DNA from: a virus
Taxonomy: Duplodnaviria > Heunggongvirae > Uroviricota > Caudoviricetes
Virus record (IMG/VR): IMGVR_UViG_2671180770_000006
Length of the DNA: 5,784 nucleotides
Strand: one strand, 5' to 3'
Shown: positions 1-4,559 of the stretch, one piece after another
Layout: every line of letters begins with the position of its first letter
How positions within the stretch are numbered: position 1 is the first letter of the stretch
Notes under the pieces: model-generated
What the model was told of the DNA's origin: nothing
Seen by the model: the letters and a program-made list of their open reading frames with translations, nothing else
The model's database searches: none
Made by a program: the position numbers and the translations under genes

Positions 1-58
1 CAACTGGCTCTCCGGAAACAAGAAAAACTGTCAGAACAAGTGCAAATGCTGTATTCAT
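1..58 (-). CDS. Hypothetical protein, partial (5' end only; gene continues beyond left edge). N-terminus MNTAFALVLTVFLVSGEPV is hydrophobic, signal-peptide or membrane-anchor like
   Basis: Minus-strand ATG at 58..56 overlaps the upstream gene's stop (plus tcat at 55-58 = ATGA on minus), a classic translational-coupling junction. The 19 codons in the window are open and hydrophobic. Not in the ORF track because it is truncated. Confidence 0.4.
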   Translation of the reverse strand, partial: MNTAFALVLTVFLVSGEPV

Positions 59-378
59 TGCCAGCATCCTTTTTGTATCGGACGTAAACGGGCCAACATT
101 GAAAGAATGCATATTTTATTTAATAGCTCCCGTTCGTGTTTTCTCTTGTTAATGGCATCTTCAGTAAATACAGGGTTACTGATAGTGACACCAATTTCAA
201 AACAACCTTCAGACGTATTAACGTTTGGTAATAACGTTTCCATTATCGCGTCCTCAACAATGAATTTTGTGATGCAGTGCCTGGTGCCTCCAGGTGACGT
301 TAACCAGTTAACAATTAACGCCGGATACAGAGCATTCCCGTTACGCCCGTAAAAGACCGCTTGTTTTAACTGTTCCAC
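55..378 (-). CDS. Hypothetical small protein (107 codons from GTG at 378; alternative ATG at 243 with GAGGA 7 nt upstream would give 62 aa)
   Basis: ORF from the six-frame track; the codon at 376-378 is GTG with no obvious SD, whereas the internal ATG at 241-243 has a good SD. Protein-like composition extends to about 378. Stop overlaps the next gene's ATG (ATGA). Confidence 0.5.
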   Translation of the reverse strand: MEQLKQAVFYGRNGNALYPALIVNWLTSPGGTRHCITKFIVEDAIMETLLPNVNTSEGCFEIGVTISNPVFTEDAINKRKHERELLNKICILSMLARLRPIQKGCWQ

Positions 379-810
379 GTGCGCTGAGCCGCATTCACCG
401 CATCACAAAATTCACTTTAAAAAAGGCGGCAGAGCAGTTACGGAGTAAAACTGGTACCGCCAAACGTCACCAGAAAATGGATAACAGAGGGCGTTGCAGC
501 GTGGTTGTCTCTTAAGCGTATGGTCAACCTGACAACCCGGTGTACTCAACGGGGAAGGAATAACCCCGCCATACTTACCGCCGCGCCATTTCGCGGATTG
601 CCACAACCGGAAGCGCACGGTCGACGAAAATTTAACGACAGGCTATCTATGAACCAGCTACCTCGCCGAGCGCTTTCGCGTTATGGTCTGACTTTTCAGG
701 GAAATATCCTTTCAGTAAACTGTCAGTGCCGGATGCTCACCCGTGTCCGGCGCACGCACTCCACCTCACCCGTGGAGAACTCCTTAATCACCAACCCTCA
801 GGAGGGTGAA

Positions 811-1086
811 ATGTCGACTGAAAATGATGAAATCATTAACTCCCTGATACGCCAGATTAATAATTTTGATAAAGCATTGCAGCATGCTGCGGCGCGTAGT
901 GATATAACTCTTTTAGCAATTTCATTTCTTGCATCTGTTATGGATAAAAATGAAGTCGTACGACAGAGTCTTGTTGATTATATCGACTCGCTTCAACCCG
1001 GCACTTTCAATCATGAGAGCTTCAATCATGAGAAAGAGCATGTTAAGTCTGTAATTAATTCTCTTATTTTGAATCAAAAGAATTAA
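811..1086 (+). CDS. Hypothetical small protein, 91 aa (MSTENDEIINSLIRQ...), one hydrophobic segment (ITLLAISFLASVM)
   Basis: ATG at 811 preceded by AGGAGG at 800-805 (5-nt spacing). The listed 193-aa ORF from 505 begins with TTG and its first 100 residues are R-rich and not protein-like, so the start is placed at 811. An intrinsic terminator follows. Confidence 0.6.
   Translation: MSTENDEIINSLIRQINNFDKALQHAAARSDITLLAISFLASVMDKNEVVRQSLVDYIDSLQPGTFNHESFNHEKEHVKSVINSLILNQKN
1006..1035 (+). repeat. Tandem 15-bp direct repeat (ttcaatcatgagagc / ttcaatcatgagaaa) inside the 811-1086 CDS, encoding FNHES-FNHEK
   Basis: Two adjacent 15-mers, 13/15 identical, read directly from the sequence. Confidence 0.8.
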
Positions 1087-1940: not shown

Positions 1941-2011
1941 GCTGACCTCATTTCCCCTTAACGCCGGGTGGCGGAACTAAAACCTACAGCGCCGTGCTGT
2001 TCTTGATGGGA

Positions 2012-2040
2012 ATATTAGTAACGCGGATATTTTAAGTCAA
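2012..2040 (-). promoter_or_regulatory. PL-like sigma70 early-left promoter (minus strand: TTGACT, 17-nt spacer, TAATAT)
   Basis: -35 TTGACT is the reverse complement of 2035-2040 and -10 TAATAT the reverse complement of 2012-2017, with a 17-nt spacer. It sits upstream of the leftward small-gene operon and its spacer/-10 closely resembles the PR-like promoter. Confidence 0.5.
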
Positions 2041-2137
2041 CAGTATGGCGTATGATATTTTTGATTTGGTAACTATGTAAATGTTTTTTCAAGGGAAAAA
2101 TATTAGTTATACAGCTGATTTGCAAAAGTTATGGCAC

Positions 2138-2167
2138 AAAAAAACCGACTAAGACGTCGGTTTTTTT
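2138..2167. terminator. Bidirectional rho-independent terminator just downstream of the repressor gene
   Basis: A7-CCGAC-taagac-GTCGG-T7: a perfect 12-bp inverted repeat with a GC core and A/T runs on both sides, so it gives a U-tract in either orientation. Located 27 nt beyond the repressor stop (2194-2196). Confidence 0.75.
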
Positions 2168-2193
2168 GTTGTGGATGGGGTAGTGAGCGGTGG

Positions 2194-2655
2194 CTACTGG
2201 TTACGTTTCTTTAGTGCCAGCATGTTCTCGAAGGCTTCCTCGTAGAGCTTGTTTAGTCCACGTAGCTGGTTAAGGAGTTTGGCTTTTTCTGACGCAGGTA
2301 GAATCTCGAAGAGGTTAAGTAACTCTGCCTGTTCTTCATTGACCAGCCTCCATCCTTTGCCTGAAAAGTTATCATCATAATTATCTGATGATCTTACATA
2401 ATTCATTAAGTCTTTAAGGTCTTCTCGAATGTCCTCTGGTTTTACCTTTAACAGAGCCGCAAATTTTAGCGCAGCGTCGGTATTTACCGGTATCTTGCCG
2501 TTCAGATACTGGCTAACGGTGCCTTGAGATTCGAATCCCAACAACTCAGCCGCCAGCTCTTGAGTCAGCTTCAGCTCTTTTTTTCTTGCATTCCATGCGG
2601 CTTTTAAATTCTTGCTCGCTTCTGGAGTTGCAATCACTTCGCGTGTTTTTTTCAT
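2194..2655 (-). CDS. racR: Prophage immunity repressor, CI/RacR-like, XRE-type HTH near the N-terminus, 153 aa; no recognisable LexA/S24 autocleavage domain
   Basis: HTH-like segment LTQELAAELLGFESQGTVSQYLNGK; divergent from a Cro-like gene across about 100 bp; terminator immediately downstream; C-terminal half lacks a peptidase-like motif. Symbol given by architecture match to the Rac RacR-YdaS-YdaT module, not by verified identity. Confidence 0.8.
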   Translation of the reverse strand: MKKTREVIATPEASKNLKAAWNARKKELKLTQELAAELLGFESQGTVSQYLNGKIPVNTDAALKFAALLKVKPEDIREDLKDLMNYVRSSDNYDDNFSGKGWRLVNEEQAELLNLFEILPASEKAKLLNQLRGLNKLYEEAFENMLALKKRNQ

Positions 2656-2661
2656 ACATAG

Positions 2662-2689
2662 AGTTTATTTGTTTTACCAATATTATCAA
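2662..2689 (-). promoter_or_regulatory. PRM-like promoter for the repressor (minus strand: TTGATA, 16-nt spacer, TAAACT), predicting a leaderless or near-leaderless repressor mRNA
   Basis: -10 TAAACT ends 6 nt before the repressor ATG and there is no SD upstream of that ATG, analogous to lambda cI transcribed from PRM. Hexamers read from the sequence; the start site is inferred. Confidence 0.4.
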
Positions 2690-2693
2690 AGAC

Positions 2694-2702
2694 AGTCTGA
2701 CT
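2694..2702. promoter_or_regulatory. Palindrome AGTCtGACT between the divergent -35 elements; candidate operator
   Basis: 9-bp dyad with a central T, positioned between the PRM-like and PR-like -35 hexamers. Confidence 0.3.
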
Positions 2703-2703
2703 A

Positions 2704-2732
2704 TTGATCTTTAAAATTAGCGGGGCTAATAT
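2704..2732 (+). promoter_or_regulatory. PR-like sigma70 early-right promoter (TTGATC, 17-nt spacer, TAATAT) with embedded inverted repeat ATTAGC-GGG-GCTAAT (2716-2730)
   Basis: -35 at 2704-2709 and -10 at 2727-2732. The 6-3-6 inverted repeat occupies the spacer and overlaps the -10, a typical operator position. About 30 nt upstream of the Cro-like ATG. Confidence 0.55.
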
Positions 2733-2762
2733 TTGCTCGAGGCATAACGTAGAAGGTTGGCT

Positions 2763-3038
2763 ATGAACTTAAGAGACTATTTAAAAGAGAAACATATCAC
2801 CCAGCTACAGTTTGGGAAGCTAACGGGTTTATCTCAGGTGCATGTAAGTCGAGTGCTGGGGGGCTATGAAAGATTCAGCCCTGAAAAAGCATTACGTGTT
2901 GCTGAAGTAACGAATTTCGAGGTTACACCTCATGAACTCCGGCCTGATATTTACCCGAATCCAACCGACGGCTTACCTGTTGGATTCAAGGCTAACACAC
3001 CAAATGCATCGGAGTTGATTCATGAAAATCAGGCATGA
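2763..3038 (+). CDS. ydaS: Cro-like small HTH regulator (YdaS family-like), 91 aa
   Basis: ATG at 2763 with GAAGG 6 nt upstream (the track's 2757 start is a TTG). HTH-like ITQLQFGKLTGLSQVHVSRVLGG and an ELRPD motif; divergent from the repressor. Symbol is by family resemblance. Confidence 0.75.
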   Translation: MNLRDYLKEKHITQLQFGKLTGLSQVHVSRVLGGYERFSPEKALRVAEVTNFEVTPHELRPDIYPNPTDGLPVGFKANTPNASELIHENQA

Positions 3039-3447
3039 GCACATCCGCATGGCGATGAATGCCTGGGCGCGTCCTGATGGCGAAAAAGTTCCAGCAGCTG
3101 GAATAACCCAGGCTTATTTTGAGTTGGGTATGACGTTTCCTGAACTGTATGACGACAGCCATCCGGAAGCCCTGGCTCGCAATACACAGAAAATTTTCCG
3201 CTGGGTAGAGAAAGACACCCCTGATGCAGTTGAAAAAATTCAGGCGTTGTTACCAGCGATCGAAAAAGCAATGCCGCCTCTGCTGGTGGCCCGAATGCGC
3301 AGCCACAGTTCAGCTTATTTTCGGGAGCTGGTGGAGACGCGGGAACGACTGGTGAGAGACGCTGATGATTTTGTCGCAGTGGCGATCGCTGGTTTCAACC
3401 AGATGAATCGTGGTGGCCCGGCGGGAAATATTGTGGTTGTGCATTGA
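3022..3447 (+). CDS. ydaT: YdaT-like protein (reported CII-type functional analogue in Rac/CP-933P-type prophages), 141 aa
   Basis: N-terminus MKIRHEHI and C-terminal ...VVVH match my recollection of YdaT-family proteins; GGAG 7 nt upstream; overlaps the Cro-like stop by 17 nt, consistent with coupling. Assignment is from memory, not a search. Confidence 0.7.
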   Translation: MKIRHEHIRMAMNAWARPDGEKVPAAGITQAYFELGMTFPELYDDSHPEALARNTQKIFRWVEKDTPDAVEKIQALLPAIEKAMPPLLVARMRSHSSAYFRELVETRERLVRDADDFVAVAIAGFNQMNRGGPAGNIVVVH

Positions 3448-3518: not shown

Positions 3519-4559
3519 ATGGCTAATGCCTGGCTCAGATTATGGCATGACATGCCAAATGATCCTAAGTGGCGAACAATTTCCAGGGTGTCAGGACAGC
3601 CAATTGCAACAGTGATGGCGGTGTATATCCACCTTCTGGTGAGCGCGTCACGAAATGTCACGACATGTCACGGCGTGTCACTACGTGGTCACATTGATGT
3701 CACGACGGAAGATTTAGCAAGTGCGCTTGATGTGACGGAAGAAGTAATTGATTCAATTTTACAGGCAATGCAGGGGCGGGTACTTGATGGAGATTTAATC
3801 ACCGGATGGGAAAAACGCCAGGTACTGAAAGAGGACAATGGCAACGTTTCACAAACCGCGAAATCCCCAGCAGAGCGCAAGAGAGCGCAGCGCGAGAGGG
3901 AAAAATTACGAAAACAGAATGAGGGGTGTCACGACGAGTCACGCATATGTCACGACATGTCACGACGAGTCACGACAGATAAAGATACAGATAAAGAATT
4001 AAACCCCACACATAACGCGCACGTGCGCGAGAGTGATCCGACCAGTGAGTCGAGTGGTACGCCGTTGCAGGCAGCAGAACCTGCATCCCTGGATGGACTG
4101 AGCGAACCCATCGGGAAATTTCCGATGGTCGATGGCTGGCATCCGTCGCCGGATTTTCGACGACGGGCTGCGTTGTGGGGGATGGCTTTGCCGGAGCCGG
4201 AATTTACACCTGCTGAACTTGCCGCTTTCCGGGACTACTGGGCAGCGGAGGGGAAAGTTTTCACGCAGGTTCAGTGGGAGCAGAAATTCGCCCGTCACGT
4301 AAATCACGTCAGGGCGCAGGTTAAGCCAGTCAGCAAGGGGGTAAACCATGCAGCAGCACCAGGTGGCACCGCATCACGGGCAGTTCAGGAAATTCGGGCA
4401 GCACGTGAGCAGTGGGAACGTGAAAACGGATTTATCAGCGACGGAAACGGTCTGGAAGCTGTGGGAACTCATGGGGGAGGTTTATTCGAACCGCTGGACC
4501 CAGAAGAACGGGGCCGCACCTTCGAAGCTCTGGATTGCACAGATTGGCGCGATGACTGA
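3519..4559 (+). CDS. Replication initiator (lambda O functional analogue): N-terminal domain, low-complexity charged linker and C-terminal domain; contains the putative origin
   Basis: Sits immediately upstream of a P-like gene; two arrays of GTCAC(GAC) direct repeats plus an AT-rich tract lie inside the ORF, the linker-embedded arrangement known for ori-lambda in gene O. ATG at 3519 with AGAGG 5 nt upstream (track start 3513 is a GTG). The last 212 nt overlap the P-like gene out of frame, so the true C-terminus is uncertain. Confidence 0.65.
   Translation: MANAWLRLWHDMPNDPKWRTISRVSGQPIATVMAVYIHLLVSASRNVTTCHGVSLRGHIDVTTEDLASALDVTEEVIDSILQAMQGRVLDGDLITGWEKRQVLKEDNGNVSQTAKSPAERKRAQREREKLRKQNEGCHDESRICHDMSRRVTTDKDTDKELNPTHNAHVRESDPTSESSGTPLQAAEPASLDGLSEPIGKFPMVDGWHPSPDFRRRAALWGMALPEPEFTPAELAAFRDYWAAEGKVFTQVQWEQKFARHVNHVRAQVKPVSKGVNHAAAPGGTASRAVQEIRAAREQWERENGFISDGNGLEAVGTHGGGLFEPLDPEERGRTFEALDCTDWRDD
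3647..3708 (+). repeat. Iteron-like array 1: six direct repeats of GTCAC(GAC) at 10-11 bp spacing (starts 3647, 3657, 3667, 3677, 3688, 3699)
   Basis: Counted directly. The helical-turn period places the repeats on one DNA face, and the phase drift makes the protein read CHD / SR / VTT in rotating frames. Confidence 0.7.
3928..4003 (+). repeat. Iteron-like array 2: five GTCACGAC-type repeats (starts 3928, 3938, 3949, 3959, 3969) followed by AT-rich GATAAAGATACAGATAAAGAATTAAA (3978-4003); candidate origin core and unwinding element
   Basis: Counted directly. The iterons-then-AT-rich layout parallels ori-lambda; the AT tract itself contains GATAAAGA twice. Confidence 0.65.

Follow-up and report, generated by a model that had tools for sequence, protein, structure and literature searches.

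The immunity region described here raises two linked questions: how a prophage repressor is translated when its start codon follows no evident ribosome-binding sequence, and how repression is relieved when the protein appears to lack the means to cleave itself. We examined a stretch of 5,784 nucleotides (the window), which comprises the 5.8-kb immunity and early region of a lambdoid prophage of Escherichia coli. Many E. coli chromosomes are 99% identical to the segment from 1950 to 3100, and the best complete-genome match to the whole window has 98.1% identity; of 5,426 complete E. coli genomes, 140 to 180 match at least 80% of the two DNA queries used. The repressor, WP_000753626 (WP_000753626.1), is widespread but unnamed in E. 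coli prophages, and a literature search found no paper mentioning the accession. Its amino acid sequence shares 98.7% identity with that of the "dicA" product of phage Rac-SA53, and relatives were found in E. albertii, Enterobacter, Hafnia, Salmonella, and Serratia.

The gene neighborhood is summarized in Table 1. To the left of the repressor gene lie a terminator, PL-like promoters, ydfA (DUF1391), small open reading frames (ORFs) that are ydfB and ydfC in the PGAP annotation of related prophages, the DicF small RNA, and dicB. To the right, past ydaS and ydaT, are a DnaT/O-like gene with iterons, a lambda-P-like gene, and a DUF1627 gene. The repressor gene diverges from the Cro-like gene across an intergenic region of 107 bp. 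This is the layout of the DicA/PaaR2/GtgR class, in which the repressor would be expected to act on the PR and PL operons.

Table 1. Positions of genes, promoter elements, and candidate regulatory sites in the window.
Feature	Position	Strand	Basis or remark
dicB	55-243		Leftward operon
DicF sRNA	424-475		Rfam, 70.5 bits
Candidate OL-like operator, ATATTAGT-AAC-GCGGATAT	2012-2030		13/16 matches; overlaps the -10 of the leftward promoter
Candidate bidirectional intrinsic terminator (probable)	2136-2169	-	Repeat I1; perfect 14-bp stem with T runs, directly past the repressor stop codon
Repressor gene, 153 aa	2194-2655	-	ORF; Pfam; PDB match; AF2; Foldseek; hhalign
6-nt spacer, ctatgt	2656-2661	-	Between -10 and start codon; without Shine-Dalgarno sequence
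-10 hexamer of PRM-like promoter, TAAACT	2662-2667	-	Ends 6 nt before the ATG; predicted +1 is the A of AUG, 2655
Candidate OR3-like palindrome	2665-2683		11/16 matches; overlaps the PRM-like -10; chance level on its own
Weak -35 hexamer, TTGATA	2684-2689	-	16-nt spacer to the -10; only TT at -35/-34 conserved across homologs
PR-like promoter, TTGATC (2704-2709)-17-TAATAT (2727-2732)	2704-2732	+	Read from the sequence; predicted to drive the ydaS-like cro
Candidate OR1-like operator, 19-bp palindrome AAATTAGC-GGG-GCTAATAT	2714-2732		Predicted; overlaps the PR -10
ydaS-like Cro analogue	2763-3038	+	Pfam YdaS_toxin and HTH_3; SD energy -5.8 kcal/mol
YdaT-box-like inverted repeat, TTGATTCATGAAAATCAG	3015-3032		ydaS/ydaT junction; 1 mismatch to TTGATTN6AATCAA
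ydaT-like CII analogue	3022-3447	+	Pfam YdaT_toxin; PDB 3c4r, E = 1e-88; CP-933P YdaT 8bt1, E = 1e-78

We began with the protein itself. Pfam placed an HTH_3 domain at residues 23 to 75 and, at E <= 0.1, matched only HTH families; Peptidase_S24 (PF00717) was absent, and the C-terminal half, for which the preliminary description had suggested a domain search, returned nothing else. The translated sequence contains no Ala-Gly or Cys-Gly dipeptide and no cysteine. An AF2 model built from 10 sequences, of moderate confidence (mean pLDDT 67.5; 57 to 69 in the C-terminal domain), is entirely helical with no beta strand. It has helices within residues 11 to 89, a disordered linker of about 17 residues (90 to 106, pLDDT <50), and two further helices at 107 to 117 and 121 to 152. 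The best Foldseek matches of this model were structures of the lambda cI N-terminal domain (target TM-scores 0.79 to 0.85), and none was to an S24 fold. In a phmmer search of the PDB, the N-terminal domain likewise matched lambda cI (3kz3 and 1lmb; E = 3e-4 to 9e-4). The architecture is thus a lambda-CI-type HTH domain (about 11 to 89), a linker (about 90 to 106), and a two-helix, DicA-type C-terminal domain (107 to 152). Both hallmarks of the autocleavable S24 class, the Ser/Lys peptidase domain and an Ala-Gly or Cys-Gly scissile bond, are missing, and the earlier claim that the protein has no recognizable LexA-like autocleavage domain is borne out by the Pfam, AF2, Foldseek, and motif results alike. 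Because the S24 Ser/Lys peptidase fold and the Ala-Gly site are absent, RecA should be unable to trigger self-cleavage, and derepression would therefore have to follow another route.

The C-terminal domain indicates which family of repressors this one resembles. By BLASTP, residues 111 to 152 align with DicA residues 91 to 132 (38% identity, E = 8e-6). Alignment of the whole family by hhalign gave a probability of 94.9% against DicA (E = 4.7e-8), 89.5% against PaaR2 (E = 2e-6), and a marginal 62.8% against Gifsy-2 GtgR (E = 7e-5). The NCBIfam DicA model NF007257 aligns over nearly its full span (repressor residues 18 to 152, model positions 7 to 132 of 135) at E = 1e-8, with a score of 35.1 bits that falls below the cut-off of 101. 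A C-terminal motif, ELLxxFxxxPxxE, is invariant in the window repressor, three close homologs, PaaR2, and DicA, and GtgR has the similar LLxLFxxLPxxEK. The protein therefore has the short-repressor architecture of 120 to 160 aa, in which an HTH domain is joined to a short helical C-terminal domain with this motif. BLASTP found no significant similarity between PaaR2 and the repressor. K-12 RacR was also considered as a homolog and set aside, since it has no BLASTP similarity to the repressor although the gene context is Rac-like. An exhaustive HMMER search with the 69-aa C-terminal domain yielded just 4 matches, each a close relative or a fragment; so short a domain is inadequate as a single-sequence query against a database of that size. 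Judged from these alignments, the repressor belongs, as a distant relative, to the DicA/PaaR2/GtgR architecture class and lies outside the curated DicA subfamily. Short, noncleavable, leaderless repressors of this kind (DicA, PaaR2, RacR, and GtgR) have been described before, and the window repressor presents no new mechanism.

Comparison with the individual members of this class shows which features are shared. PaaR2 of CP-933P/Sp12 in E. coli O157:H7 is also a leftward repressor gene divergent from ydaS-ydaT, across an intergenic region of 97 bp; both proteins lack a peptidase motif and share the C-terminal motif, and the YdaT encoded beside PaaR2 is matched by the ydaT-like product (E = 1e-78). 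PaaR2 differs in being 123 aa long and in heading the paaA2-parE2 toxin-antitoxin operon, whereas the window repressor gene is followed by a probable terminator of its own; BLASTP detects no similarity between the N-terminal domains, and the operators are different. In the cryptic K-12 prophage Qin, DicA is likewise short (135 aa), with an HTH domain and without Ala-Gly; it is homologous over its full length and controls a leftward operon, ydfA-ydfB-ydfC-dicF-dicB, that resembles that of the window. Its N-terminal domain, however, is P22-C2-like whereas that of the window repressor is lambda-CI-like, its partner is DicC rather than YdaS/YdaT, and its operator sequences differ. The Salmonella Gifsy repressors (GftR/GtgR, GfoR, and GfhR) are of similar size (about 136 to 150 aa) and carry the LLxLFxxLPxxEK form of the motif, but the homology is marginal (hhalign 62.8%). 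Lambda CI shares the sequence and fold of the N-terminal domain, with E34 and D38 of CI aligning with the acidic residues E33 and E37 of the repressor, and lambda likewise has PRM and PR back to back. Lambda CI differs in its S24 C-terminal domain and RecA-dependent self-cleavage, in place of which the window repressor has the two-helix domain.

If the repressor is not cleaved, what relieves repression? Two relatives point to antirepressors. Repression of dicBp by DicA is relieved 165-fold by Rem, a protein that in K-12 has no known inducer (PMC10448788), and the Gifsy repressors are displaced by small LexA-controlled antirepressors, encoded elsewhere in the prophage, that are needed for induction (PMC3121763). 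By analogy with DicA/Rem and Gifsy GftR/GftA, antirepressor control of the window repressor is plausible (PMC10448788, PMC3121763); control of the antirepressor by LexA is the Gifsy arrangement. We searched for an antirepressor within the window by tblastn with Rem, a Rem variant (below), and the 73-aa ORF beside Gifsy-2 dinI, a query that is possibly GftA, and found none. Outside the window, an identical repressor is present in two E. coli prophages (L005 and L006), each with a 57-aa ORF at the hokD-rem-DUF968 position, which in L006 spans 28226-28399. The first 25 residues of this ORF are 76% identical to Rem, and PGAP marks it as a partial pseudogene; in Rac-SA53, the annotated rem product is 68.5% identical over 95% of the ORF. 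The neighboring 90-aa ORF beside the DUF968 gene was considered as a Rem homolog and rejected, the adjoining 57-aa ORF being the Rem-like one. Because this Rem variant co-occurs with the repressor, a Rem-type antirepressor is the leading candidate.

A different possibility is that no antirepressor is involved: the YdaS Cro analogue might flip the switch at random or under stress, or the prophage might simply not be SOS inducible. There is precedent for such behavior: in about 1 to 2% of K-12 cells dicBp switches on spontaneously, with no need for RecA or Rem (PMC10448788), and PaaR2, which has no peptidase motif, is unresponsive to mitomycin C and forms a bistable module with YdaS (PMC8630535). 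Nor does a link to LexA stand out. LexA-like boxes with one mismatch number 4 in the window against 1.7 expected, a count reached in 13 of 200 shuffles, and we judged them to be chance matches since they have either poor centers or a broken CAG; no CTGT-N8-ACAG box was noticed in a reading by eye, rather than a pattern scan, of the sequence preceding the Rem variant. Against this stand the strength of derepression of dicBp by Rem, the requirement for antirepressors in Gifsy induction, and the presence of the Rem variant alongside this repressor allele in three prophages examined (L005, L006, and Rac-SA53). We regard induction without an antirepressor as a serious possibility, although one with somewhat less than even odds.

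We next turn to how the repressor is made. The ATG at 2655 is the start chosen by PGAP in E. coli genomes; an in-frame TAA lies 4 codons 5' of it, no alternative start codon precedes the HTH domain, and an N terminus of the form M-[KR]-[KR]-x-R-E-x-I-A is common to most homologs. On the minus strand the order is TTGATA (2689-2684), 16 nt, TAAACT (2667-2662), ctatgt, and the ATG (2655), just as the preliminary description had it in placing a leftward -10 hexamer 6 nt before the start codon. Its statement that no Shine-Dalgarno (SD) sequence lies within the 15 nt before the ATG also holds: for the 20 nt preceding the start codon, the predicted energy of pairing to the 3' tail of 16S rRNA is +1.6 kcal/mol, compared with -5.8 to -10.8 kcal/mol for 8 of the 9 other starts tested and -3.1 kcal/mol for the ninth, an uncertain P-like start. 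The repressor gene thus has the layout of a leaderless mRNA, with a -10 ending 6 to 7 nt before the start and no SD. In a promoter scan of the window, however, 5 matches were observed against 2.1 +/- 1.4 expected, and the repressor promoter scores 9 of 12; taken singly, such a match is weak evidence and is not statistically significant.

Because the single promoter match was not significant, we compared homologous loci from E. albertii, Enterobacter ludwigii, Hafnia, Salmonella, Serratia, and metagenomes, whose repressors are 58 to 99% identical in protein; the nonredundant set comprised 11 loci with proteins 58 to 91% identical to the window repressor. One of TAAACT, TAAAAT, TAAGAT, or TAGAAT occupies exactly positions -12 to -7 in 12/12 sequences. 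Across the 11 nonredundant loci, A at -13, T at -12, A at -11, and T at -7 are invariant, while positions -6 to -1 are variable (0.06 to 0.43 bits) save for a G at -2 in 8 of the 11. Mean ungapped upstream identity among these loci is 54%, and through shared ancestry the conservation is partly nonindependent. This pattern marks a sigma-70 -10 element whose distance to the start codon is kept constant.

Lambda PRM has an identical spacing (TAGATT-taacgt-ATG), which recurs at paaR2 (GATAAT-taccac-ATG), a locus that we recovered via a published primer sequence, and at Gifsy-2 gtgR (TAAAAT-gtgaat-ATG) when the gene is taken from the 136-aa start of Lemire et al. For PaaR2 the consequence has been established experimentally: Jurenas et al. 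mapped the transcription start to the A of the AUG by 5' RACE and found the N terminus MQKKE by N-terminal sequencing (PMC8630535). In E. coli K-12, Romero et al. found no more than five leaderless mRNAs, and prophage regulators account for three of them (PMC4681348); the mapped leaders of racR, ymfK, and dicA are 0, 0, and 3 nt, respectively (PMC4681348, Table S3). From the conserved geometry and the mapped 5' ends of relatives, the window repressor mRNA very probably starts at its own AUG, which strongly supports the earlier proposal of a leaderless transcript like that of lambda cI from PRM.

The PRM-like promoter lies back to back with the PR-like promoter, whose hexamers and 17-nt spacing are kept in 8 of 9 homologous intergenic regions; the PR call of the promoter scan, AAGACA-17-TAAAAT, was dropped in favor of this conserved pair. 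A leftward, PL-like promoter (TTGACT-17-TAATAT) lies at 2040-2012. The two 19-bp palindromes that overlap the -10 hexamers of PR and PL are the better operator candidates. No shuffle of 500 yielded two sites scoring at least 13/16, where the half-site was derived from the copy at 2714-2732, so that this copy is nonindependent; at a loose threshold, a palindrome scan remained at chance level (7 observed versus 6.0 expected). The palindrome over the PRM-like -10 is a possible site for negative autoregulation. A 9-mer, AATATTAGT, occurs in 4 copies against 0.96 expected; we considered it as an operator half-site, but two of the copies coincide with the TAATAT -10 hexamers of PR and PL, and the repeat was partly reinterpreted as an overlap with these.

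At the ydaS/ydaT junction, the inverted repeat listed in Table 1 resembles the binding site described for YdaT (PMC9986795), and PRE933P of CP-933P occupies the matching position (PMC8630535). By analogy with lambda, a second repressor transcript with a long leader is likely to arise from a PRE-like promoter here during establishment. Neither this promoter, with its second, leadered transcript, nor membership of the DicA/PaaR2/GtgR class had figured in the preliminary description.

One group of relatives departs from both the domain structure and the promoter geometry described above. The CI of Stx phage Lyz12581Vzw and Stx2a phages has an N-terminal domain that is 50% identical to that of the window repressor (E = 5e-24) and a homologous promoter/operator intergenic region, but its C-terminal domain is Peptidase_S24, and a 4-nt insertion gives TAAAAT-tggaggcact-ATG, which includes GGAGG. 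Further homologs of the N-terminal domain are fused to PF00717. This distribution suggests that different C-terminal induction modules have been exchanged on a common DNA-binding and promoter module, which is unsurprising given phage mosaicism. Tentatively, the window repressor and the S24-type CI may both derive from a natural domain swap, in which a lambda-like DNA-binding domain with its operators and PRM/PR acquired in one case a RecA-cleavable domain and in the other a DicA-type, antirepressor-dependent one, with a 4-nt change converting a strictly leaderless start into a short leader with GGAGG; we consider this idea less likely than not. If it were true, a single immunity lineage could exchange, as cassettes, both the induction pathway and the mode by which its maintenance repressor is translated.

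These observations also bear on whether the repressor might instead be translated mainly from leadered, SD-less transcripts, initiated at the PRE-like promoter or another upstream start and read by means of an AT-rich, S1-dependent enhancer, with TAAACT conserved as part of an operator. The YdaT box with its single mismatch at the PRE933P position could supply such a transcript, the weak palindrome at 2665-2683 does overlap the hexamer, and the GGAGG of the S24-type relative would be usable only by a longer transcript. The conserved positions, however, are those of a sigma-70 -10 (T1, A2, and T6), which place +1 on the A of the AUG in 11/11 homologs, and PaaR2, RacR, and YmfK share the layout and have been mapped as leaderless. 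Furthermore, a PRE transcript would supplement the PRM-like transcript rather than replace it, as in lambda. Predominantly leadered translation is, on balance, improbable. Inactivation by proteolysis, whether RecA stimulated at a noncanonical site or by a host protease of the Lon/ClpXP type, is very improbable indeed: the disordered linker at 90 to 106 could be protease accessible, but the protein has no S24 domain, Ser/Lys dyad context, Ala-Gly or Cys-Gly, or beta structure, and tagged Gifsy repressors of the same class remain uncleaved during induction (PMC3121763).

Taken together, the best explanation as a whole, to which we assign a probability of about 0.8, is that this protein is the lysogeny-maintenance repressor of a Rac/Qin-like lambdoid prophage, a noncleavable, DicA-type repressor made leaderless from a PRM-like promoter and relieved by a route other than self-cleavage. 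In the lysogen, the weak PRM-like promoter would transcribe the repressor gene leftward from the -10 hexamer 6 nt before the ATG. The mRNA would begin at the A of the AUG and be translated independently of an SD, as for lambda cI, PaaR2, and RacR. The product would bind DNA via its lambda-CI-like HTH domain, probably at the 19-bp palindromes over the -10s of PR (ydaS-ydaT-O-P) and PL (ydfA...dicF-dicB), and would probably oligomerize via its short helical C-terminal domain. Derepression would most likely be brought about by a small antirepressor of the Rem/GfoA type whose gene lies in another part of the prophage, and stochastic switching by the YdaS Cro analogue may contribute. During establishment, activation of the PRE-like promoter by YdaT would probably provide the long-leader transcript.

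These findings leave the current understanding of such switches unchanged. They add a widespread E. coli prophage repressor, WP_000753626, to the leaderless, noncleavable lambdoid class, and they lend comparative support to the view that selection acts on maintenance promoters to keep the -10 element six nucleotides from the AUG. Prophages with the immunity type of the window should not be induced by direct RecA-mediated cleavage, which bears on their predicted mobilization by SOS-inducing antibiotics, including that of the LT-II toxin phage Rac-SA53.

The window contains two palindromes of the form ATATTAGy-N3-rCTAATAT that match at 13 or more of 16 positions, compared with 0.034 expected from shuffled sequences. 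Together with a weaker copy of the same form, these sites, each of which lies over a promoter -10 element, are candidate operators. Immediately downstream of the repressor gene, a perfect inverted repeat with A and T runs on its flanks probably acts as a bidirectional terminator that parts this gene from the PL-like promoters; our terminator scan of the window did not pick it up.

Features of the window and of related phages and prophages
Feature	Location	Strand	Details
19-bp palindrome	window 2714-2732		overlaps PR -10
19-bp palindrome	window 2012-2030		overlaps -10 of PL-like promoter
19-bp palindrome, weaker	window 2665-2683		overlaps PRM-like -10
14-bp inverted repeat	window 2136-2169		directly past repressor stop codon
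YdaT-box-like TTGATTCATGAAAATCAG	window 3015-3032		ydaS/ydaT junction
(T)GTCACGAC-type repeats, 2 clusters	window about 3650-3710 and 3925-3975		within DnaT/O-like gene
91-aa ORF	window 811-1086	+	strong SD, -10.8 kcal/mol
DicF sRNA	window 424-475	-	Rfam RF00039, 70.5 bits
dicB	window 55-243	-	
S24-type cI	L068 859-1578; upstream region 745-858		phage Lyz12581Vzw
57-aa Rem-variant ORF	L006 28226-28399; L005 27600-27776; KU052037 18365-18526		

In Gifsy-2, the annotated start of gtgR (L067 7274-7280) is a GTG two codons 5' of an ATG, and the 136-aa GtgR of Lemire et al. is the product from the ATG. The geometry here, TAAAAT-gtgaat-ATG, suggests that a leaderless mRNA begins at this ATG. The cI of Stx phage Lyz12581Vzw shares 50% identity with the window repressor in the N-terminal domain and has a homologous operator/promoter region, but a 4-nt insertion there puts a GGAGG between the cI -10 and the ATG.

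To the right, the YdaT-box-like sequence differs at a single position from TTGATTN6AATCAA, the YdaT site described in PMC9986795, and is probably a PRE-like promoter with the CII analogue as its activator. The repeat clusters further along are probably origin iterons, placed inside the DnaT/O-like gene as those of lambda are inside O.

Prophages with the window repressor allele, including loci L005 and L006, carry a Rem-variant ORF in which the N-terminus of Rem is conserved and the C-terminus differs; PGAP labels it a partial pseudogene of 75 nt.

Left of the repressor, a 91-aa ORF, oriented opposite to the leftward operon, had no match in Pfam or PHROG. Because the DicF sRNA is found upstream of dicB, the leftward operon, predicted to be under the window repressor, is a Qin-type dicBF cell-division-inhibitor operon.
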